DNA of 64,000 nt from Escherichia phage UE-S1, in sequence record ON568341.1. One strand, written 5' to 3'. Under the pieces are notes generated by a model that saw only the letters and a list, made by a program, of their open reading frames with translations, did no database searches and had not been told where the DNA came from. Every line of letters starts with the position of its first letter. Position 1 is the first letter of the stretch. Shown here piece by piece: positions 2,602 through 63,095 of the stretch. The translations under genes were made by a program, and so were the position numbers.

Positions 2602-2629
2602 TTGACAAGATAGAATGATGTGATATAAT
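2602..2629 (+). promoter_or_regulatory. Sigma70-type promoter: TTGACA, 16-nt spacer, TGaTATAAT (extended -10)
   Basis: Exact -35 TTGACA at 2602-2607 and -10 TATAAT at 2624-2629 inside the motif GATGTGATATAAT. Confidence 0.6.
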
Positions 2630-2694
2630 AAGCATCAGACATAAAGTTTTCAAGCGGCACAAGATGTGAGTTTGAAAAAAATAAAAAAAAGTGA

Positions 2695-2722
2695 TTGACA
2701 AGTTGAAACGATGTGATATAAT
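2695..2722 (+). promoter_or_regulatory. Second tandem sigma70-type promoter: TTGACA, 16-nt spacer, TGaTATAAT
   Basis: TTGACA at 2695-2700, TATAAT at 2717-2722; same GATGTGATATAAT motif about 93 bp downstream of the first copy. Confidence 0.6.
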
Positions 2723-2892
2723 GTTCACATCAAGGCAGCAAAGAGATTTACCTTTTTAAACACACGGATGATTCATGAAGTAATAAAGGAACTGATAAGT
2801 TAAATTATTTTAACACAGTTCCTTTACTTTTGCCCACGGATTGGCTATAATAGAAACTTAAACGATTTTATCCAACAAAAGGAAATATATAC

Positions 2893-4218
2893 ATGACTAC
2901 TCAAAACGATATCCTGAATGTTAAACTGACTCCAAAGAAAGCTAAAGAAGCAATGGCACTAGCTGACATGATTCAAGATAGCCTGATGATTTGGGGTAGC
3001 CCAGGTATCGGTAAGTCTGCAATTGCTCGTCAATACGCTGATGAAAATTACCCTCTGCGTAAAGATAACGAAGCTAAAATCGAGTTCATGAAACAACAAA
3101 TTGAAGCTGACCCTGAAAATGCTGATCAGCTACGCCGTGAACTGGCTGCATTTGAAGCTAAACTAATCGACCAAGATACTAACTTCATCGATTTCCGTTT
3201 GTCTCAAATTGAACCAAGTGACCTCCGTGGTATCCCTGTACCAGAGAAGCTTTTCCGTAAAACTGACGGTTCTCTTCTCAAAGAATCTGAGCTTGCTGAA
3301 GCAAAAGATTATGTTGCTGAAACTGCTGTAGTTTGGGCTGCACCTAAAGTGCTGAAATTGCCAGAAGATTGGAAAGGGGTTATTCTGTTTGACGAAATTA
3401 ACTCTGCAATGCCAATTGTTCAGGCAGCGTCTTATCAGCTAATCCTCGACCGTTGTGTTGGTGAGATGAAGCTACCTAAAACTGCACTGATTCTTGCAGC
3501 AGGTAACCGTGAAACTGATGGCGGTGTAACGTTCTCACTGGCTACACCACTACGTGACCGTATGACACACATTGAGATGATTCCTTATCATCAAGATTGG
3601 ATTAACGATTATGCAATTGGTAAACGTTTGAACCCAGCAACTGTTGCGTTCATCAACAACACAGGTTCTAAGTACTTTAACACTCTTAGCCCACAAGATC
3701 CTTCTCACAGTGGTGGTACTTCTCCACGTTCATGGGAAGCTGTAGCACGCTACGAAGATCTCAAGAAAACTAAGACAATTGATAAAGAAGTGTTCCGTGC
3801 AATGATTGCTGGGCGTGTAGGTGAAGGTGTAGCAACTGAATACATTGAGTACGTTGATAACGTTGCTAAACTACCAGATACTATGTCTATTCTGTCTGGT
3901 GAAATCAAAGATATCGATGCAACTCTTGATATTTCTGCGAATTATTTTATTACTTTGAACTTGGTTTATAAAATTATCGACCTGTTCAATGAGAAGCAAG
4001 AACAACGTCTACCAGTGGAAGAATGGGGTAAACTGTGCAACAACTTCATTACCTTCCTTGACCATAACTTCTCTGCAACTCAAGCAGAACTGGCAGTTCT
4101 GGCAATTCGCACCATTACGCTTCATAAGGTTGCGATTTCCATTAAAGATGTACCAGCGTTTAAAGATTTTATCGCTAAGTACTCTGAACTAGTTCGTAAA
4201 GCACGCTCTCTTGGGTAA
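2893..4218 (+). CDS. MoxR-like (AAA_5 / CobS-like) AAA+ ATPase
   Basis: Walker A GSPGIGKS, Walker B ILFDEIN, later AAGNRE motif; AAGGAAA ribosome-binding site. Confidence 0.8.
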   Translation: MTTQNDILNVKLTPKKAKEAMALADMIQDSLMIWGSPGIGKSAIARQYADENYPLRKDNEAKIEFMKQQIEADPENADQLRRELAAFEAKLIDQDTNFIDFRLSQIEPSDLRGIPVPEKLFRKTDGSLLKESELAEAKDYVAETAVVWAAPKVLKLPEDWKGVILFDEINSAMPIVQAASYQLILDRCVGEMKLPKTALILAAGNRETDGGVTFSLATPLRDRMTHIEMIPYHQDWINDYAIGKRLNPATVAFINNTGSKYFNTLSPQDPSHSGGTSPRSWEAVARYEDLKKTKTIDKEVFRAMIAGRVGEGVATEYIEYVDNVAKLPDTMSILSGEIKDIDATLDISANYFITLNLVYKIIDLFNEKQEQRLPVEEWGKLCNNFITFLDHNFSATQAELAVLAIRTITLHKVAISIKDVPAFKDFIAKYSELVRKARSLG

Positions 4219-4238
4219 TTAACAAAGAGTGGTTGACA

Positions 4239-4268
4239 AGAAGGATACGATATAGTATCCTTCTTTTA
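4239..4268 (+). terminator. Intergenic stem-loop with U-tract between the ATPase and VWA genes (partial terminator or attenuator)
   Basis: AGAAGGATAC-gatata-GTATCCTTCT followed by TTTAT; a TTGACA lies just 5' but the -10 spacing is poor. Confidence 0.45.
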
Positions 4269-4292
4269 TCTTAACTAAACGAGGAAATATAC

Positions 4293-5717
4293 ATGTCGGA
4301 TAACAAATCTTCATCTAAGTTTAATGAAGTATCACCAGAACTCCAAAAGGAATGTCAAGATCGATTGGTTCTGGCTCGTACATCTTTGATGTTAACTGCT
4401 CCGTTCTTTGGTGTTTTGGCTTCGCGTTTACGTCCTGTTCCTAATAATACATGGTGTCGTACACTAGCAGTTGATGGGAAACATTTATTCTACAATGTAG
4501 AATTTGTTATGGGCATCCAAGATCAATCTAAAAAGAAAGAGTACGAAGATGCTATTCGTGAAAAACACCCAGAGGTTACTGATGAACAATTAAAAGAAAT
4601 GACAGAAGGTCTGACAGATGAAAACCTCATTGCAGTGATTTGTCATGAAATTTTGCATTGTGCTTACGACCACTTCCTTCGTCGTGGAATGCGTGATCCA
4701 CAACGATACAATCGTGCAGCAGATTATGCAATTAACCAAATTATTGTCCGTGAGAAAATTGGAAAAATCCAAAGCTCATGGTTATATGATAAAAAATATG
4801 AAGGAATGACCGCTGAAGAGATTTATATTCTTCTGGAAGATGAAGAACAAAAAGAAGAAGGTGAAGGGAACGGTCAACCACAAAGCGGTGGTGGTGAAGG
4901 TGAAGGTAAAAATCGCGGAACTTTTGGTGATATCAAAGATGGTAAGGGTAAACCAAAAGGTACAACAATTGACCAACATGACGTTCCACAAGAAGGCCAA
5001 GACGGTGGTTCAAGTGAACAGCAAAAACGCGATTATATGGATGATTTCAAAACAGCAATGATGAATGCTGCACGTGCTGGTGGCACACCAGCAGAAATCG
5101 CTCGTATGATTAATAACTTCAAAGAACCAAAGATTGATTGGCGTTCTAAACTTCAACGCACTCTTCGTAGCTGGTTGAAGTCTGATGCAACTTATCAAAA
5201 TCCAGCACGTCGTTCATGGGGTGCAGGTTTTGGTTCTAATGGTTCATTTTATGGTAATCCAATTTATCCAGGGATGAAACCAGATGATGATATTGATATT
5301 GCAATTGCACTCGATGCTTCTGGTTCTATTTCCGAAGACATGCTTCGTGATTTTATTAGTGAAGTTCTTGGTATCACTAAACAATTTAAACAGTTTAAAA
5401 TTCGTATCATGACATTTGATACTGAAGTTTATACTGTAAAAGATTACAAAACTGGTGAAGAACGTAAGATTCTGGAATATCCAGTAAAAGGTGGTGGTGG
5501 TACTGACTTTGAAGCAGTATGGGTTCATATGAAGAATGACAACTATAAGCCTAAACAGCTTGTAATGTTTACTGATGGTGAACCGTGGCAGTCATGGGGT
5601 GATCCTAACTACTGTAAAACACTGTTTGTGATTCACAGTAACCCAAATAAAGTTGCACCATTTGGTGAAACAGTACACTACGAGTATGAAGCAGACAAAA
5701 AACGTCAACGTAGTTAA
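4293..5717 (+). CDS. Protein with N-terminal HExxH metallopeptidase-like region and C-terminal von Willebrand factor A domain
   Basis: HEILH(C)AYDH motif; Gly/Glu-rich linker; MIDAS-like DASGS in IAIALDASGSISEDM; VMFTDGEPW. Confidence 0.75.
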   Translation: MSDNKSSSKFNEVSPELQKECQDRLVLARTSLMLTAPFFGVLASRLRPVPNNTWCRTLAVDGKHLFYNVEFVMGIQDQSKKKEYEDAIREKHPEVTDEQLKEMTEGLTDENLIAVICHEILHCAYDHFLRRGMRDPQRYNRAADYAINQIIVREKIGKIQSSWLYDKKYEGMTAEEIYILLEDEEQKEEGEGNGQPQSGGGEGEGKNRGTFGDIKDGKGKPKGTTIDQHDVPQEGQDGGSSEQQKRDYMDDFKTAMMNAARAGGTPAEIARMINNFKEPKIDWRSKLQRTLRSWLKSDATYQNPARRSWGAGFGSNGSFYGNPIYPGMKPDDDIDIAIALDASGSISEDMLRDFISEVLGITKQFKQFKIRIMTFDTEVYTVKDYKTGEERKILEYPVKGGGGTDFEAVWVHMKNDNYKPKQLVMFTDGEPWQSWGDPNYCKTLFVIHSNPNKVAPFGETVHYEYEADKKRQRS

Positions 5718-5729
5718 GTACTAAATAAT

Positions 5730-5759
5730 GAGAACGGAAATTTTCCGTTCTCTTCTTTT
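5730..5759 (+). terminator. Rho-independent terminator
   Basis: GAGAACGG-aaatttt-CCGTTCTC hairpin followed by a T-tract. Confidence 0.6.
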
Positions 5760-5765
5760 ATAAGT

Positions 5766-5793
5766 GAGACAACTCACAAAAATATGATATAAT
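5766..5793 (+). promoter_or_regulatory. Sigma70-like promoter: GAGACA, 16-nt spacer, TGaTATAAT
   Basis: GTGAGACAACT -35 element and extended -10 TGATATAAT upstream of the 5829-8883 gene block. Confidence 0.45.
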
Positions 5794-5828
5794 AGTTATT
5801 GTACCAATATACATGGAGAGTATTAAAA

Positions 5829-6074
5829 ATGGAACAAGAAAATAATCAAATTCAACTAACCCTTCTAGACCTAATCAATGCAGCAAAAATCATGGAAGCT
5901 GCTGTTGCCCGAAATACATTTAAAGTTGAAGAACTCGTGGATGTTTCCCCAGTTGTCGCCAAATTTGTTTCTTTTGCAAATGAAGCACTTGAAGATATTA
6001 AAGCTCAAGAAGACGCTGCTAAAGAAGAATCTGAATCACAAGATATTAAAGCTCAAGAAGATAAAGGAGAATAA
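5829..6074 (+). CDS. Small hypothetical protein (start moved to the ATG with a GGAGAG ribosome-binding site)
   Basis: ATG at 5829 preceded by GGAGAG; the track ORF starts at 5799 without a good ribosome-binding site. Confidence 0.5.
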   Translation: MEQENNQIQLTLLDLINAAKIMEAAVARNTFKVEELVDVSPVVAKFVSFANEALEDIKAQEDAAKEESESQDIKAQEDKGE

Positions 6075-6076
6075 TT

Positions 6077-6733
6077 ATGGCAGCTATTCGTCATGTTGGT
6101 GTAATGCGTAATACAGGTTCACGTGTTTTTGTTGTTTGGCGTTCACTACCAGATGATCCTGACCACTGCCTTATTGTTTATCGTGATTCCTTACCAGAAG
6201 CATATGTTCATGCAGTAACTGATATTGTGATGGGTCATGGTCAATCAAACATTGATTTGTGGGAAGTAATGCATAAAATTGGTTACCTGGATGGTCGTAA
6301 AATGCTAGATGTACTACACAATATGCAACATTTACGTCGAGTTCGCACTTGTGATATTGATATGCATACTGGTGGTAATAATAAAATTTCTCTTGATGTT
6401 CTAAACAAAGCATTAGATGAAAATCAAGCGAAAGTACAAGAAGATGGTAAAGTAAAAGACTTTAACCCATTTAACCCACAAGAAGTAGACACAAAAGTTG
6501 AAGAAGCAACTATTGTTGAACAACTTATTTCTGACGCTAAAAAATATGAAAAACTTGCTCAAGAACACTATGAACGTGCATACAATTTAGAGCCAAGTTT
6601 GCGTCCACAAACACAAGTTGTTGAACAACCAAAAGATAGTAAAACAATTTATCTAGAAATTCCTGAAGGTATTTCACAGACTAAAGCTATTGAGAAAGTA
6701 AAACAACTATTCGCAGAACGCAAAGCAAAATAA
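6077..6733 (+). CDS. Hypothetical protein
   Basis: 218-aa ORF with AAAGGAGA ribosome-binding site, immediately after the previous stop; no motif recognised. Confidence 0.55.
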   Translation: MAAIRHVGVMRNTGSRVFVVWRSLPDDPDHCLIVYRDSLPEAYVHAVTDIVMGHGQSNIDLWEVMHKIGYLDGRKMLDVLHNMQHLRRVRTCDIDMHTGGNNKISLDVLNKALDENQAKVQEDGKVKDFNPFNPQEVDTKVEEATIVEQLISDAKKYEKLAQEHYERAYNLEPSLRPQTQVVEQPKDSKTIYLEIPEGISQTKAIEKVKQLFAERKAK

Positions 6734-6736
6734 AAT

Positions 6737-7330
6737 ATGAAAAAGAATGAATTAGATGAAGCAATTAAAGGTTTATCTAATGTATGTTTTAGTGGCGGGG
6801 CAGCAGGTGCTGACCGCCTTTTTTCAATCTATGCAAAAAATAATGGATTTGAAGTTATTAATTTTTCATTCAAAGGTCATGTGCATAGTGTAGATGAAAG
6901 CACCATATTAGAAATACCATCCAATATTTTATCTGATATTTCTATATTAAATCAACTAAACATTGCATGTTATTCGTTGCAGCGAAAAGTACCAAAGCCT
7001 GGTTCATATGTTTACAACTTACTTGCAAGGAATAGTTATCAGATACTTAATACAGAAAGAATATATTGTATTGCAAATATTACATCGCCAACTAAGGTAA
7101 GTGGTGGTACTGCATGGGCAGTACAGATGTACATTGATTCAGTTGAAAATCCAGAAATTTATTGTTATGATATGAATTCACGTTCTGTGTTTTACTTCGA
7201 TACAGAACTGAAAGAGTTCAAACAATCATTCGTGGTTCCACCACCACATGGTAACTGGACTGGTATTGGTTCACGCAATGCAACAGAAAAACATATGGAA
7301 CATTTTATTACATTTTTCAAGGAAGAATAA
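6737..7330 (+). CDS. Rossmann-like protein with GGAxGxD motif (SLOG / LOG-DprA-like nucleotide-binding fold); function unknown
   Basis: N-terminal VCFSGGAAGADRLF resembles the glycine-rich loop of SLOG-family proteins; stop overlaps the thyA start (TAATG). Confidence 0.45.
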   Translation: MKKNELDEAIKGLSNVCFSGGAAGADRLFSIYAKNNGFEVINFSFKGHVHSVDESTILEIPSNILSDISILNQLNIACYSLQRKVPKPGSYVYNLLARNSYQILNTERIYCIANITSPTKVSGGTAWAVQMYIDSVENPEIYCYDMNSRSVFYFDTELKEFKQSFVVPPPHGNWTGIGSRNATEKHMEHFITFFKEE

Positions 7331-8883
7331 TGAAGCAACTACAAGAACTATATCAAAAAATTCTAGATGAAGGCGTAGAAAGCGTTGACCGTACTGGCGT
7401 TGGCACAATCAAACTTATCGGTCAACAAATGCGTTTCGACCTTAAAGATGGTTTCCCAGCAGTGACGACAAAACGTCTAGCTTGGAAATCAATGACTTCA
7501 GAATTACTATGGTTTATTGAAGGCTCCCATGATGAACGTCGCCTTTGTGAAATTTTACATGGAACTCGTGATACAGAAAAGAAAACTATTTGGACAGATA
7601 ATTGTTTAGATCGTGCAAAAAACGATCCCAATCGATTTAATGGGGAAACGGTCGGTAATATGTATGGCATGAATTGGCGTTATCAACCATCTGAACCACA
7701 TAGCTATCAATATATTGAGAGGAAAACATATATTGATGATTATGTTGAAAATCATATTTGTCCAGAAATTACTGATACATTTAATGGAGTTAAAATTCAC
7801 AAATCTGCCAAATGTGGGGATTATGAAGTTATTGGTAAACATCATAATAATATAGTAATTCGTTTCATTAACACCGGTTCATATAAAATTGTACCAAGAA
7901 CTGCGAAAAATATTAAAGATTTTTTCCAACCATCAATTGAAGGGATTGGATATTTGGGTGGTGTAATTCCTGATACATTAACTGCAAAAAAATTATATCA
8001 AATTTGGAAAGATATGATTATTAGAGTGTATAACCCTAGAAAAAATCATTTATCATATGAAAATATAACTGTATGCAAACGTTGGCATAATTTTATGAAT
8101 TTTTACAATGATGCTTTTTCATTATGGGGATTTCAAGAATTTGTTGACAGTGGGTATTCTCATCAACTTGATAAAGATTATTACGGTTCAAACATTTATT
8201 CACCTGATACTTGTATTTTTATATCAGCATCATTAAATAAAACATTAAATGGTGGTGGACATGGGTTTAAAATTTATCTTTATAAAGGTAATGTATTTTA
8301 TTCTAGAACCGATTTACAAGAATCACGTGGTTTAACAAGAAAGGCCAATTTACCAGATGATGTAACAATATTAGAAGATAATGAAACACACGTAGTAAGA
8401 CCAAAAATATACATTGATCAACTACAGCGTTGTATTGATTTAATAAAGAACGATCCAGATTCAAGACGAATTGTTATTACATCATGGAATTCTAGAGATA
8501 TTGAAAATGCAGCATTAGGTATGTGTCACCCATTAGTACAATGGTTTGTTATTAATGGTAAGTTGTCATGTTCATTTTATATGCGTAGTTCTGATAGCTT
8601 CTTAGGCTTACCATTCAACATAGCATCATATGCACTACTTACCCACATGATAGCACAAATATGTTCTCTAGAGGTTGGAGAATTGATTTATACAGGTGGT
8701 GATTGTCACATTTATAAAAACCACGTTGAACAAGTAAAAGAACAACTACAGCGAAAACCACGTGAATTACCTGAATTGTGGCTTGATCCTACCATTACTA
8801 ATATTGAAGATTTCACAATGGATTCTTTCAAATTAGTAAATTACAACCCAATGCCAACAATTAAAGCACCGATGGCTGTATAA
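7330..8883 (+). CDS. thyA: Thymidylate synthase (ThyA family) with a ~228-aa in-frame insertion
   Basis: N-terminal TS motifs (DRTGVGT, FPAVTTKR) and C-terminal TS core (NDPDSRRIVITSWN, catalytic CHPLVQWFV, LGLPFNIASYALL, GGDCHIY); 517 aa rather than ~265-285. Confidence 0.85.
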   Translation: MKQLQELYQKILDEGVESVDRTGVGTIKLIGQQMRFDLKDGFPAVTTKRLAWKSMTSELLWFIEGSHDERRLCEILHGTRDTEKKTIWTDNCLDRAKNDPNRFNGETVGNMYGMNWRYQPSEPHSYQYIERKTYIDDYVENHICPEITDTFNGVKIHKSAKCGDYEVIGKHHNNIVIRFINTGSYKIVPRTAKNIKDFFQPSIEGIGYLGGVIPDTLTAKKLYQIWKDMIIRVYNPRKNHLSYENITVCKRWHNFMNFYNDAFSLWGFQEFVDSGYSHQLDKDYYGSNIYSPDTCIFISASLNKTLNGGGHGFKIYLYKGNVFYSRTDLQESRGLTRKANLPDDVTILEDNETHVVRPKIYIDQLQRCIDLIKNDPDSRRIVITSWNSRDIENAALGMCHPLVQWFVINGKLSCSFYMRSSDSFLGLPFNIASYALLTHMIAQICSLEVGELIYTGGDCHIYKNHVEQVKEQLQRKPRELPELWLDPTITNIEDFTMDSFKLVNYNPMPTIKAPMAV

Positions 8884-24758: not shown

Positions 24759-26102
24759 TTATTTGTCAGTGAAAGTTATTTTCCAATATCCTTGTCGATA
24801 AACAGGCATAATACTCTTATGCCATTTAAATTTGTCATTATACCTATAATAACCATTATCTTCTTTATTATAAATGTAGTTACGTACAGATGATGGGTCA
24901 ATTAACTCAACACCATCGTTTGTAATTTTAAACATATAATTTGAAGGAATTTCGGTTTCTTTATAAATGATGTTATGTATACTGTTATTTACATAATATT
25001 GTTCCGGTATTGCATCGAAAAGAACTGAACCTTTCTGTACAAAACCGTGTATCGTATAATCGACAGTATAGTTACTATTATCAAGCTGTACAATAATTTT
25101 GTTAGCATCTTCATTTTCACCATATGAAGATATATAGCCTTTAAGTGGGTTGTCTTCTTCGATTGACTGTTGAAATTTAATACCTACTTTTTTGTCATCA
25201 AAATTTGGTTCTAAATATTTAAGATATTTTTCCCATGAATATATACCACCATTAGGCGAAACATCAGATAATGATTGACTGACTAAAGTTAGCTGATATG
25301 TATCTGGCAAATTATATAAAGAATTAGTTATTTCTTCAACTTTAATACATAAATTTTTGGGTGTAAAAACATCAGTAATTATATCAGTATAGTCACCCAT
25401 TTCAATATCAAATTCGTCACGAGCACCTTTAATGTTAGTAGTAATTTGTTGAATTAGTTTTGGCTTTTCAACAATAGCTGGCAAAGAAAACCATATTGTT
25501 GTTTCAAATGTTAATACCATTATATCTAAATCTTGGTCAGTACCTTGTGGAAAACCACGCGTGGTGAACTGACAATCAATTAATTCAACATCACTAAGTG
25601 ATGTCCAGTCCAATGGATTATCTGATAATTGAAGCTGGATGCTTGGTGCAAATAAAGTAGAGATTTGCTCGAATAATTCCATTTTTGTTTGAATTTGAGT
25701 TACCCAAATGTTCAAATCAAATGTAAAAGTCCAAGGTACAGGGTTGTGTCTTACAATTTTATACTGTGTGTCAAGTTCCTTTTTATATTCATTAATGGCA
25801 GGAGACTTGTTCGTCCCCATCACTAAAGTTTCATTTGCATTAGAGCGTACACTCTTGCGATCCAACTTTAGTTGGTTAACACTTATTGTCATAATAGGTG
25901 CTGATGGTAAAACATTTTCACTATTCCCATTAATAATTGCTGCTGCCATTCTTGAAATATCAGCATAACGACATGGAACTTTTTTATATTTTGGGTTCCC
26001 ATCAGCATCAACGCCATTTTGCACTTGAAATTCACCAAAAACTCTGATAAGATGTTTCAGTACTCTGCGAAATTGACCGTCATAATAATAATCTATCTTC
26101 AT
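24759..26102 (-). CDS. Hypothetical virion or structural protein
   Basis: 447-aa ORF; start overlaps the upstream stop (ATGA), suggesting translational coupling. Confidence 0.5.
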   Translation of the reverse strand: MKIDYYYDGQFRRVLKHLIRVFGEFQVQNGVDADGNPKYKKVPCRYADISRMAAAIINGNSENVLPSAPIMTISVNQLKLDRKSVRSNANETLVMGTNKSPAINEYKKELDTQYKIVRHNPVPWTFTFDLNIWVTQIQTKMELFEQISTLFAPSIQLQLSDNPLDWTSLSDVELIDCQFTTRGFPQGTDQDLDIMVLTFETTIWFSLPAIVEKPKLIQQITTNIKGARDEFDIEMGDYTDIITDVFTPKNLCIKVEEITNSLYNLPDTYQLTLVSQSLSDVSPNGGIYSWEKYLKYLEPNFDDKKVGIKFQQSIEEDNPLKGYISSYGENEDANKIIVQLDNSNYTVDYTIHGFVQKGSVLFDAIPEQYYVNNSIHNIIYKETEIPSNYMFKITNDGVELIDPSSVRNYIYNKEDNGYYRYNDKFKWHKSIMPVYRQGYWKITFTDK

Positions 26103-40078: not shown

Positions 40079-43000
40079 TTAAGAACCAATATTTATATTG
40101 CTTTTAGCTAATGAGTTAACTATTTGAACATTTTCTACTGATGCCGTACTCAAAAATATTTGGTCCGAACGTGATGGAATTTCAAATAGTGACCCAAATT
40201 TTGAATTTGGATTTTGTGCAACAATAACAATTGTACTAATATGTCTCCCCAATTGGGAATGTATATAAGTACACAAATCAGTGTAATAGAAACTTTCACC
40301 AAAATCCCAATTATCAACATTAAAATATTCATTTGTTAATGCAATAACATTTTGACGAATTTCATCGTCACTCATAGTACTATTTGGTAATTTAACAACT
40401 TTAAAATCAGCTTTATAGTCTTCAGCAGCACTATTGCCAAACAATGGTAGGTACTCTGCACTATGCCAAATAATACTGTCACTGATGACAATTTTTTGCT
40501 CAACATCTTTGAACATATTTTTCAATTCAACTGATGTAGGTGGTTTTGGGATACTTCCAACTGCATTATTTTTCAACCACACATCAACTTCGGTTTTATA
40601 CGAGTTAGTTAGAACATACATATCAATTAAGTTTGTTCTACTTGGATCAATGCGATTATCGTCAGGTGCATAATGTTTCCAATGGAAGTCAATACTTGTA
40701 CGAGCATTTGTTTTGACTGTGTATTGTGCAGTAACATCTTTATAACCATAGTAATCCAACTTCTGATTCTCATCAGAATTAGTACCCATGTTGTTAATTG
40801 TACGATAAAATGCGAGTTCTGGTGTAACAGTTATGGTGTCATCTGAATATGTCAAATTACTAATTAATTGACCCAAACGATCATTGTTGTTACCAACGGT
40901 TTGTTCGATGAAATAATATTTACCATCATATTTAAAACACACTAAGAATCCAGAACCTTTACTGTACAATCCACTCAATGAGTTAGAACGAATTGCATTA
41001 TTTCGTACAAATTCAGTTCTTTTATATGTATTAGGTTCAGCTAATGCTTGTTCCATCGTATAAGACCAAGATGAATCTAGAAACGTGAATGTATCATTTG
41101 GTAAAGATAGAACTGAAATAGTAAAATCATTATTTTCTTTGAATATCAAAATACCACCATATTTCAATGCATCAGTACCTGACCATTCTGGAACAATTTC
41201 TTTAAATTGGTTTGGTTCCAATGGTATACCATTACTATCTACTTTTCTAGATGTGACAATAATACGAGAGCCATCAAGATATCCATTTTCTTGCTGTATT
41301 GTATCATAAATTTGAAAATCAATATTACTCGTCAGTCCAGAATTGTTAGTACTGGTGGTGTTCGAAGATAAAATTTCAATCTTATCGCTTTGAACAGTGC
41401 CAGTACTAATATCAGTTATTTTTTTGGATGAAACAAAGTAAAATTTCACTTTATCCCCACCAACGAATATATATTCAATACCATTAGCGTCAAATTCCCA
41501 AGTTTCTGCTGTATATTTTACATTTATAACAACCAAAACTTCATGACCATTATACATAATAGTATCATCATTCGTACTTACTTCTACCGGAACCCATGCA
41601 GTTGTTTCTTTGTCATGCACAATGACAAAATCAGTTTTCTTATCCAACATTGCAGAAATAGATTGAACTTCAACGGAATCAAACCTAGTTCTATATGGTA
41701 ATATATAATCAATTGCTTGCATTCTACTTGGTACGGATGTACTTAATACATAAAACCCATTATCTAATACACTAACAATACTTGCCCATACTGTAGTGGT
41801 AGAGTTAGAAAATTTAATCAAAGTACCCACCTGATACGAGCCATATACAGTCCCAGATGAACCCAAAATTCTACCATATGTATTTGTAGTATAATTTGAA
41901 TTATATACAGGCGTCCATGATTGTTGGATTTCAATGCCAATCGTATTGGAAGGGTAAGCTTGATAGCGTTGTATTACCGCATTTTCACCAATCAATGGTT
42001 GAATATTATCAATAACAATGCTGGCATTAGTTTTTGTTGTTGGTAGTAATAGTGACCTATTAAATTTAGTATTTTCTTGATATAATGCCCCGTCATCACT
42101 AAACACATCAGTGTTTTGGTATTTTCCAGTAGGATCATTGATGTCAATAAATCTAGACTGACCACTATAAATTCTATTAATAGCTTTCGACTTAAGCACT
42201 GTATTCCCTAAACTAAGGGGTGCTATATTATAATCTTCACCATTAACAAAGCGGTTTTGTGTATAGTACATTTGTGGTGCACGTGCTTTAATCTGCTCAA
42301 TTGTCTCAGCACTTTGTGCACGATCTGATTCATATTGTAATGAAAAACGTACATCCAACGTACTAGATTCATAACTTGATTGTGTTTTAGTTCGATATGT
42401 ATACTTTACACTTTTATTTTGAATTTCTGATGTTTTAATGTTATACGTTTTACCATTACTGACGCGATACCACACGCGAAAAGTTCCACGCGGCACAACA
42501 CCACTTCTAGAATCTGGATATTTAATTGTTATTTGGTCTTTGTCACGTGTTGAAACAGCAAAAATTGTTTTTAATTGACGGTTAACCGTATTATATGCAA
42601 TACTTTCCATAGATGGTACTTTTGTCCATTTCGCACGCACAATACCATCTTCATTAATTTCTTGAACCCAAACATCAGTTTCGTTTATATTATCAACGTT
42701 TACATCTTGTATTCTATTTTCTTCACGAATATTATATTGATAATCTTGATATGTCAACGTCCCTTGTATAAAATATACAAAAAAACCAGTATTTGGTGAA
42801 CTGAATCCATTACCATCATTTTGATAGACAATATATTTTTGTTCTTGCGGTTCTGGGTGACGTTCCTCAACACCAACGGATGTAATGTCAGGGTTTACCA
42901 CTTCAAATGTCATAGATTCACCATTTACTGTTGCAACAAATGGTATACTTGGTGCAGTCATTGGAATTGTATTCATCCTATACAATTGTCGAGATACACC

Positions 43001-44555: not shown

Positions 44556-44563
44556 TATTTATA
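44556..44563 (-). promoter_or_regulatory. T4 late-promoter-like TATAAATA box
   Basis: Plus-strand TATTTATA is the reverse complement of TATAAATA, 17 nt upstream of the lysozyme start. Confidence 0.35.
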
Positions 44564-55214: not shown

Positions 55215-55305
55215 AATTCCTCACCAAACTATTTGTCATCACAATATTTATAGATTAGTTATTTGCAATATTTTAAGTACTTAATGAATATTTTATAAAA
55301 ATAGT

Positions 55306-57203: not shown

Positions 57204-57211
57204 TATAAATA
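57204..57211 (+). promoter_or_regulatory. T4 late-promoter-like TATAAATA box
   Basis: Exact TATAAATA 33 nt upstream of the 57244 start. Confidence 0.4.
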
Positions 57212-63087: not shown

Positions 63088-63095
63088 TATAAATA
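63088..63095 (+). promoter_or_regulatory. T4 late-promoter-like TATAAATA box
   Basis: Exact TATAAATA 48 nt upstream of the 63143 start. Confidence 0.35.

Follow-up and report, generated by a model that had tools for sequence, protein, structure and literature searches.

The stretch of DNA analysed here, referred to throughout as the window, comprises 64,000 nucleotides (nt) of Escherichia phage UE-S1 (ON568341.1; one strand, 5′ to 3′) and carries at positions 2602-5717 a two-gene cassette that encodes a MoxR-class AAA+ ATPase and a protein predicted to join a zincin domain to a VWA domain. We consider it highly probable that the two genes specify a two-component, ATP-driven remodelling or processing machine of the MoxR-VWA type. 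The composite reading, in which such a generic machine also serves a housekeeping client, we hold to be about evenly balanced between right and wrong. The module has already been described (N4 gp24/gp25 type), with its jumbo-phage form reported by Iyer et al. 2021; the UE-S1 cassette is a well-conserved copy of it, and the regulatory details added below are incremental. What is new here are the linkage statistics, the conservation of an inter-gene terminator, a leader hairpin, and the conservation of the promoters. The coding features are as follows.

2893-4218, + strand: MoxR-class AAA+ ATPase, 441 amino acids (aa), N4 gp24 homologue, PHROG 1297; ribosome-binding site AGGA
2995-3018, + strand: Walker A, GSPGIGKS, residues 35-42; G35, G38, K41 and S42 invariant in 48 sequences
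3391-3396, + strand: Walker B, D167-E168; E168 invariant and D167 at least 90% conserved in the same 48 sequences
4293-5717, + strand: predicted zincin (DUF2201_N) and VWA (DUF2201) protein, 474 aa, N4 gp25 homologue, PHROG 1314; ribosome-binding site GAGGA
4644-4658, + strand: HExxH predicted zinc-binding motif, H118 E119 I L H122; invariant in 43 sequences
5313-5327, + strand: metal-ion-dependent adhesion site (MIDAS) DxSxS, D341 A S343 G S345, completed by T404 and D428; all five residues invariant in the same 43 sequences

Judged by its sequence and its predicted fold, the open reading frame (ORF) at 2893-4218 is a MoxR-class AAA+ ATPase, as a first-pass annotation made from the letters had proposed. 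In an alignment of 48 homologues, with identity down to 33%, sensor-1 residue N205, the arginine-finger residue R223 and the sensor-2 pair P278-R279 are invariant. The protein matches PHROG 1297 ('ATPase') at 1e-106, and the top fold matches are the MoxR proteins CbbQ2 and NorQ, followed by midasin and dynein. The AlphaFold2 (AF2) model, as read from the DSSP string alone, has candidate beta-hairpin insertions at two places: strands 114-123 and 140-149 ahead of the Walker B strand, and some short strands near residues 188-193 ahead of strand 199-205 at sensor 1. Profile searches, which the first-pass annotation had put forward as a check on both proteins, gave a divided answer: the VWA protein matched DUF2201_N and DUF2201, whereas the ATPase itself scored 16.3 bits against Pfam AAA_3 (cut-off 27) and did not reach the gathering threshold. 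Among its relatives, 17/48 matched AAA_5 and 16/48 matched AAA_3 at E <= 0.001, and three matched bpMoxR; the shorter relatives (about 360 aa) have AAA_5, AAA_3 and, in some cases, bpMoxR.

The ORF at 4293-5717 is predicted to consist of a zincin domain and a VWA domain with an intact MIDAS, and the earlier claim of an HExxH domain combined with a MIDAS-bearing VWA domain is borne out in that every motif residue is invariant in 43 sequences. Pfam scores were 1.5e-34 for DUF2201_N ('putative metallopeptidase') and 7e-21 for DUF2201 ('VWA-like'). Close to the HExxH motif, D144 is invariant and H127 is at least 90% conserved, and the site shows weak similarity to Peptidase_M48 and PhageMetallopep. 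In the AF2 model of this protein (predicted local distance difference test score, pLDDT, 77.6) there are two ordered parts, and the linkers between them are disordered, acidic and Gly-rich. HExxH falls inside helix 109-128, and the candidates for a third ligand are H127, D144 and D227/H229, the last of which belong to an invariant D227-x-H229 motif within the disordered linkers that connect the zincin and VWA domains. Fold matches of the VWA part include the VWA domain of NorD, and a profile of the protein compared with the PDB gave a marginal integrin match.

Several database labels for the VWA protein (PHROG and GenBank), namely 'HNH endonuclease', 'Zn-dependent hydrolase (T4-gp25-like)' and 'homing endonuclease', are misannotations. 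In unrelated phages (G7C 5967-6443, Paride 5440-6936, rV5-like 5984-6961), genes for homing endonucleases are found repeatedly next to the ATPase and VWA genes or between them, and this proximity may explain the 'HNH endonuclease' label on PHROG 1314 and on many GenBank records. An 'anti-sigma factor' encoded beside the VWA gene of rV5-like phages was considered as a functional clue and set aside, as it is actually a protein of a homing-endonuclease family.

The two genes travel together. We assembled 90 viral loci: besides the window these were 9 from GenBank and 80 from IMG/VR, most of them about 38% identical. In 89 of the 90 an ATPase homologue was found 5′ of the VWA gene, generally next to it, and in all but one the two genes share a strand. 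The sole locus lacking it lies on a contig that stops 600 nt upstream. The rV5-like phages have the ATPase gene 3.6 kb away on the other strand. The pair was also present in 34/38 loci from bacterial genomes and metagenome-assembled genomes, three of the four exceptions being contigs of 0.5-1.4 kb. A tblastn search with the VWA protein retrieved 577 phage records, which span Rak2-like and PA5oct-like jumbo phages and rV5-like, KB57/Mydo-like, phiTE/CR9-like and N4-like phages, and a profile search put the VWA-protein family at 25,037 cluster representatives at 50% identity. Hosts of the carriers include Escherichia, Vibrio, Pseudomonas and Rhizobium, and marine uncultured clades carry the pair as well. 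A search of 5,426 complete E. coli genomes gave no match. Some cellular copies occupy ordinary chromosomes of sulfur-oxidising Gammaproteobacteria, and such non-phage contexts indicate that the module is not exclusively viral. The chromosomal pairs of Chromatiaceae and other Gammaproteobacteria adjoin genes for an M48-TPR peptidase, a SoxA-type cytochrome, sirohaem synthase and a TonB receptor.

The nearest described counterparts are N4 gp24 and gp25, noted as early as 2009 ('putative ATPase, AAA' and 'vWFA'), and their Schitoviridae homologues, which resemble the UE-S1 genes in their assignment to PHROGs 1297 and 1314, in gene order, in pre-late expression and in the proximity of a thymidylate synthase gene. 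G7C gp24 matched PHROG 1297 at 4.5e-134 and G7C gp25 matched PHROG 1314 at 7.3e-144; the latter carries DUF2201_N and DUF2201, as does the VWA protein of the window. When the window and N4-like VWA proteins were compared by tblastn, similarity was confined to the VWA half, at about 28% identity. Other differences are structural and regulatory. The jumbo-phage ATPase is ~90 aa longer than N4 gp24 and carries a helical insertion following Walker A as well as a larger beta insertion; in the UE-S1 VWA protein an additional insert precedes HExxH, and the low-complexity linkers exceed those of N4 gp25 in length; and the UE-S1 cassette has sigma70 promoters, whereas N4 middle genes are read by N4 RNA polymerase II (RNAPII). 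The 'group 2.2' pair of MoxR AAA+ and vWA-metallopeptidase in jumbo phages (Iyer et al. 2021, Viruses 13:63, PMC7824862) is evidently the identical module, and the GenBank record of phAPEC6 labels the two genes 'MoxR ATPase' and 'N4 gp25-like protein'.

In the explanation we favour, the product of the first gene would assemble into a hexameric AAA+ ring onto which the VWA domain of the second docks, by analogy with NorQ/NorD and CbbQ/CbbO. The intact MIDAS would grip an acidic residue of a client protein, and the VWA domain, moved by nucleotide turnover against the N-terminal zincin domain to which the long flexible linkers tie it, would thereby remodel and probably cleave that client, the remodelling serving to position or gate the peptidase site. 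The client would be a housekeeping one, with the machine acting in the maturation or assembly of a phage-encoded complex. Structures of NorQ-NorD show the VWA domain seated on the ring and reaching into the pore with a finger, a 'finger-in-pore' mode that their authors propose to be general; ATP-driven rotation then stretches the linker to the N-terminal domain (PMC13036017). The likeness of the phage pair to NorQ/NorD and CbbQ/CbbO lies in the best structural matches of the ATPase, in a MIDAS-bearing VWA partner and in the two-gene arrangement. Sequence identity, by contrast, is about 12-15%, and the clients of those systems are nitric oxide reductase (NOR) and Rubisco; a zincin domain is absent from NorD and CbbO, which insert a finger into the pore, and the phage ATPase, unlike NorQ and CbbQ, has an extra C-terminal helical domain (residues 330-441).

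Two further sets of relatives share parts of this architecture. Cellular pairs of DUF2201 and MoxR-like proteins (Synechocystis Sll7028/Sll7029; Chromatiaceae chromosomes) form the same unit in the same order at about 26-29% identity. The bacterial vWA-MoxR ternary conflict systems (Kaur et al. 2020) likewise combine a MoxR ATPase with a vWA domain fused to a peptidase-type effector. They differ in having a third component (VMAP, iSTAND or beta-propeller), and we found none conserved of that kind here; moreover, their effectors are mostly caspase- or trypsin-like and rarely metallopeptidases, whereas the phage pair has a predicted zincin.

A number of observations weigh against the favoured explanation. 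The window ATPase stays below the Pfam thresholds for AAA, AAA_3 and Mg_chelatase, and its profile search of the PDB returned weak AAA+ matches at the level of the P-loop. Among the other searches, sequence-only PDB searches with either protein found nothing significant, an NCBIfam search of both proteins gave no match, and no CobS- or CobT-specific family surfaced in the general Pfam/NCBIfam output, which involved no direct comparison with those families. Also against the favoured explanation, the VWA domain is minimal, and a NorD-like finger is not evident in the model. The core status of the pair is documented for N4-like phages only, and early or middle timing suits a host-directed function equally well. 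The first-pass annotation had stated that a role in infection is not established, and the literature agrees: on the family we found no functional study, and no experimental work on any of its members nor on the function of DUF2201/COG3864. Neither the RaK2 paper nor the CBB paper nor a 2026 review of jumbo phages refers to the pair; the homologue goes unmentioned in the PA5oct papers on transcriptome and proteome, taken without their supplements; and the portions of text searched from the genome-wide CRISPRi-ART screens (T4, T5, SUSP1, PTXU04) hold no data on it. Everything beyond domain identity and linkage, including complex formation, stoichiometry and peptidase activity, we infer by analogy.

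The transcription signals around the two genes, which bear on the timing of expression, are as follows.

2602-2629, + strand: promoter P1, TTGACA-16-TATAAT, TG extended -10; 12/12 match
2695-2722, + strand: promoter P2, TTGACA-16-TATAAT, TG extended -10; 12/12 match
2784-2832, + strand: leader hairpin, arms 2784-2794 and 2816-2826, then C-TTTT-G; 11-nt perfect inverted repeat
2823-2851, + strand: weaker promoter P3, TTTACT-17-TATAAT; 10/12, overlaps the 3′ arm of the leader hairpin
4233-4261, + strand: weaker promoter before the VWA gene; 10/12, overlaps the intergenic hairpin
4238-4275, + strand: intergenic terminator-like hairpin and T-rich tail; stem-loop 4238-4265, 11 pairs, z = -3.8
5730-5760, + strand: strong intrinsic terminator after the second gene; 10-bp stem, 5 GC pairs, T-run
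5766-5793, + strand: next promoter after the module; 10/12 with TG, 3′ of the terminator of the second gene

The two tandem, near-consensus sigma70 promoters reported upstream of the cassette are present, and both match the consensus at 12 of 12 positions with a TG extended -10 element. P1 and P2 lie in a 39-nt direct repeat with a spacing of 93 nt. In the upstream alignment P1 is found in the window and 121Q only, and equivalents of P2 are found in KP13-7, PHA46, pEa44 and XaC1; on this comparison P1 is an Asteriusvirus-specific duplicate and P2 the promoter conserved across genera. The -10 element of P3 is retained only in Asteriusvirus and, partly, in Alcyoneusvirus. Perfect sigma70 sites are ~15-fold enriched in the window, with 5 against 0.32 expected and at least 5 in 0/100 shuffles. 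The same signal is present in divergent loci, where a promoter of at least 10/12 precedes the ATPase gene in 45/53 distinct spacers (85%) but in 99/267 control spacers (37%), the controls being other same-strand spacers of the same loci (Fisher p = 8e-11, which is no strict probability because the loci are related).

A T4-type late motif, TATAAATA, stands before several structural genes of the window but before neither gene of the cassette. Sites just 5′ of large structural genes lie at 40090-40097 (-), 44556-44563 (-), 55245-55252 (-), 57204-57211 (+) and 63088-63095 (+), and the total count in the window is not above chance (7 versus 10.4 expected). The motif may serve as a late-unit marker in UE-S1. 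CBB-like relatives have a 'TGAAACG'-type promoter class tied to DNA-synthesis genes, and TGAAAC(A/G) boxes stand 16 nt 5′ of the -10 element before the ATPase genes of pEa44 and XaC1. N4 gp24 and gp25 are themselves middle genes. The conserved sigma70 promoters, the lack of a late motif and the TGAAAC(A/G) boxes therefore support pre-late expression, in which the cassette would be read by host sigma70 RNA polymerase before the late genes. Such timing does not discriminate among the possible roles of the pair.

Asteriusvirus jumbo coliphages (SP27, 121Q, phAPEC6, PBECO4) share 93-94% DNA identity with the 3.4-kb cassette region, 43 phage records match that region, and the window is, on this basis, from an Asteriusvirus-like jumbo phage. 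In 121Q the genes upstream of the cassette are labelled structural proteins and head completion protein, in agreement with the PHROG assignments of three window ORFs within 45-2203 as virion structural proteins; downstream in 121Q lie hypothetical genes, a thymidylate synthase gene and then tail-fibre genes on the opposite strand. The cassette is thus a small island of sigma70-type promoters between virion-structural and tail-fibre genes. The first-pass annotation had placed it in an early region, and since it is flanked by morphogenesis clusters it does not lie in a large region of that kind.

These surroundings bring in a role in virion morphogenesis, proposed for the MoxR-vWA pair by Iyer et al. 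2021 (PMC7824862), in which the pair chaperones the assembly of virion structures and the zincin processes structural proteins. We regard this as possible but doubtful. The position between virion-protein and tail-fibre genes holds in all Rak2-like genera, a MoxR-vWA system is reported to be required for tail assembly in Acidianus two-tailed virus, and a second, mid-expressed structural module lies close to the gp24/gp25 homologues of N4-like roseophages. Mass spectrometry of CsCl-purified phAPEC6 virions picked up the ATPase homologue gp265c (6 peptides, 19% coverage), and gp262c, the homologue of a 218-aa protein encoded downstream of the cassette, appeared in the same analysis with 1 peptide. 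However, the VWA-peptidase gp264c is missing from the phAPEC6 virion list while thymidylate synthase (gp259c) is on it, which suggests carry-over of abundant non-structural proteins. The products of this gene island found in the virions are gp259c, gp262c and gp265c, and either true packaging or carry-over could account for them. Morphogenesis also sits poorly with promoters of the host sigma70 type and no T4-like late motif before the cassette genes, with the place of N4 gp24 and gp25 as middle genes among RNAPII and nucleotide-metabolism genes, and with the occurrence of cellular copies in non-phage contexts.

The opposite choice, host takeover or counter-defence rather than assembly, was the one made by the first-pass annotation, and nothing found speaks positively for it; the lack of a PADLOC match, the core-gene status of the pair and the ATPase homologue in phAPEC6 virions all stand against it. 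On this reading the machine would, early in infection, seize a host protein through the MIDAS and then inactivate or cleave it; the target could be a defence effector, a sigma factor or RNA polymerase-associated factor, or a nucleoid protein. Bacterial MoxR-vWA systems with a peptidase effector fused to vWA are predicted conflict systems (PMC7159879, PMC12839542), and the architecture is thus one used in conflict settings. The strong, conserved sigma70 promoters point to pre-late expression, as this role would require, and rIIA/rIIB genes lie nearby in N4-like and rV5-like phages. We nonetheless judge it unlikely. A PADLOC search of both proteins at E <= 0.01 gave no match, with models that cover host defence and not anti-defence families; the catalytic residues are invariant rather than diversifying; and direct evidence of any host target is lacking. 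Known anti-defence genes are usually patchy in distribution. The pair, by contrast, is core in N4-like phages and strictly retained across a very broad host range. N4-like phages have 14 core genes, two of which are this pair, and this status, together with retention in several lineages of large phages, almost always in linked form, is unlike that of the usual accessory anti-defence genes. Several lineages of large virulent phages retain the pair vertically as a core module, and for this reason a housekeeping role in phage development seems to us more likely than accessory counter-defence.

Most of the MoxR-VWA pairs that have been characterised insert cofactors or activate enzymes (PMC13036017, PMC9976466), and a third role would fit this usual biology: the pair could mature an enzyme of nucleotide metabolism or replication by metal insertion or remodelling, in the manner of NorQD, CobST, BchID and CoxDE. 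In N4-like phages the pair has genes for thymidylate synthase and dCTP deaminase in its vicinity, in Rak2-like phages it has thyA there, and a 5′-3′ exonuclease gene is found upstream in the distant clade. We take this to be a long shot. It leaves no obvious role for the invariant, peptidase-like HExxH domain, no single candidate client enzyme is common to all lineages, and thyA is only loosely linked, several unrelated genes standing in between.

The stem-loop noted earlier between the two genes is confirmed at 4238-4265. All Rak2-like genera examined have a perfect-stem hairpin with a T-rich tail in the spacer between the ATPase and VWA genes, and the stems are unrelated in sequence, so that structure and not sequence is conserved. 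An intergenic hairpin is present in 41/54 distant-clade spacers (76%), compared with 19/266 control spacers (7%). The spacer also contains a promoter of at least 10/12 in 48/62 cases, located 3′ of the hairpin in 34/37, and a terminator-type hairpin follows the VWA gene in 22/82 loci only. The combination of an intergenic hairpin and a downstream promoter points to two insulated transcription units. We had considered attenuation at the inter-gene hairpin as a means of setting a 6:1 ratio of ATPase to VWA protein, an idea weakened by the promoters in 48 of the 62 spacers, downstream of the hairpin. With two perfect promoters before the ATPase gene and a 10/12 promoter before the VWA gene, the sites suggest that the ATPase is made in excess over the VWA protein in UE-S1; in the distant clade the two promoters are similar in strength, and the excess is accordingly not general.

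The leader hairpin (fold of the leader, z = -2.45) is a candidate promoter-proximal terminator or attenuator, or else a 5′ stabilising structure. It is kept across Rak2-like genera, with compensatory changes in 2/9 pairs, and in five genera the order is the same: conserved promoter, hairpin with T-run, ATPase start codon. It may be that P1 and P2 mainly yield a short leader RNA ending at the 2784-2832 hairpin, with the ATPase expressed from P3 or by regulated read-through (attenuation or antitermination, delayed-early), and we put this forward tentatively, as less probable than its converse. The conserved order and compensatory changes argue for it, as does the overlap of P3 with the 3′ arm of the hairpin; and in pEa44 and in Eneladusvirus-, XaC1- and GAP32-like phages the sole promoter lies 5′ of the hairpin, so that read-through is required. 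Against this, the T-run is short (4 T), the RNA from start site to hairpin varies in length (about 25 to 150 nt) and sequence, Rfam gives no family match, the distant clade has no leader hairpin, and the hairpin could simply stabilise the 5′ end. A CACGGAT motif occurs on both sides of the hairpin (2762-2770 and 2835-2843), and the related A(C/T)GGAT is found 3′ of it in KP13-7, PHA46 and pEa44; CACGGAT may be a protein-binding or processing site.

A bolder proposal would join these elements in one design, with the pair as an ATP-gated, MIDAS-guided zinc protease that captures and cleaves one specific host protein before late expression, a split, adaptor-built analogue of FtsH or Lon, and with the leader hairpin as an antitermination timer. 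We think this distinctly improbable. If true, it would mean host takeover or immune evasion by many large virulent phages.

Three small genes are conserved alongside the pair in the distant clade, and their membership in the module is uncertain.

2209-2589, + strand: co-conserved upstream gene, 126 aa, PHROG 15638; just 5′ of the ATPase gene in 79/90 loci
5829-6074, + strand: co-conserved downstream gene, 81 aa, PHROG 13789; in 61/90 loci
6077-6733, + strand: co-conserved downstream gene, 218 aa, PHROG 15894; in 78/90 loci

The 126-aa gene matched its PHROG only, and a Pfam search of the 81-aa and 218-aa genes gave no match. A third perfect 12/12 sigma70 site lies at 2124-2152, within structural ORF 1808-2203 and 57 nt 5′ of the 126-aa gene, so that 2209-2589 may share the pre-late expression island. 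Between the conserved block and thyA, a 197-aa protein (6737-7330) belongs to PHROG 768, labelled DprA-like recombination mediator, and its sole Pfam match is a weak, sub-threshold one to a SLOG-family domain (YAcAr). The thymidylate synthase of the window (7330-8883) has 517 aa versus 309 aa in 121Q, with near-identical ends and a diverged middle. The in-frame insertion of ~200 aa (roughly residues 143-352) matches HNH-endonuclease PHROGs and may be a homing-endonuclease or intein-like element; thyA of Klebsiella phage KP13-7 equals the window gene in length. Rfam and tRNA scans of the whole window found nothing.

Taken as a module, the pair is one of few genes common to N4-like podoviruses, rV5-like myoviruses and Rak2- and PA5oct-like jumbo phages. 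The details of the promoters, leader hairpin and insulation of the two genes are useful for designing expression and knock-down experiments. Identification of the client would give a core gene pair of the Schitoviridae a function, and would show how a MoxR-VWA motor acts when it is coupled to a protease.

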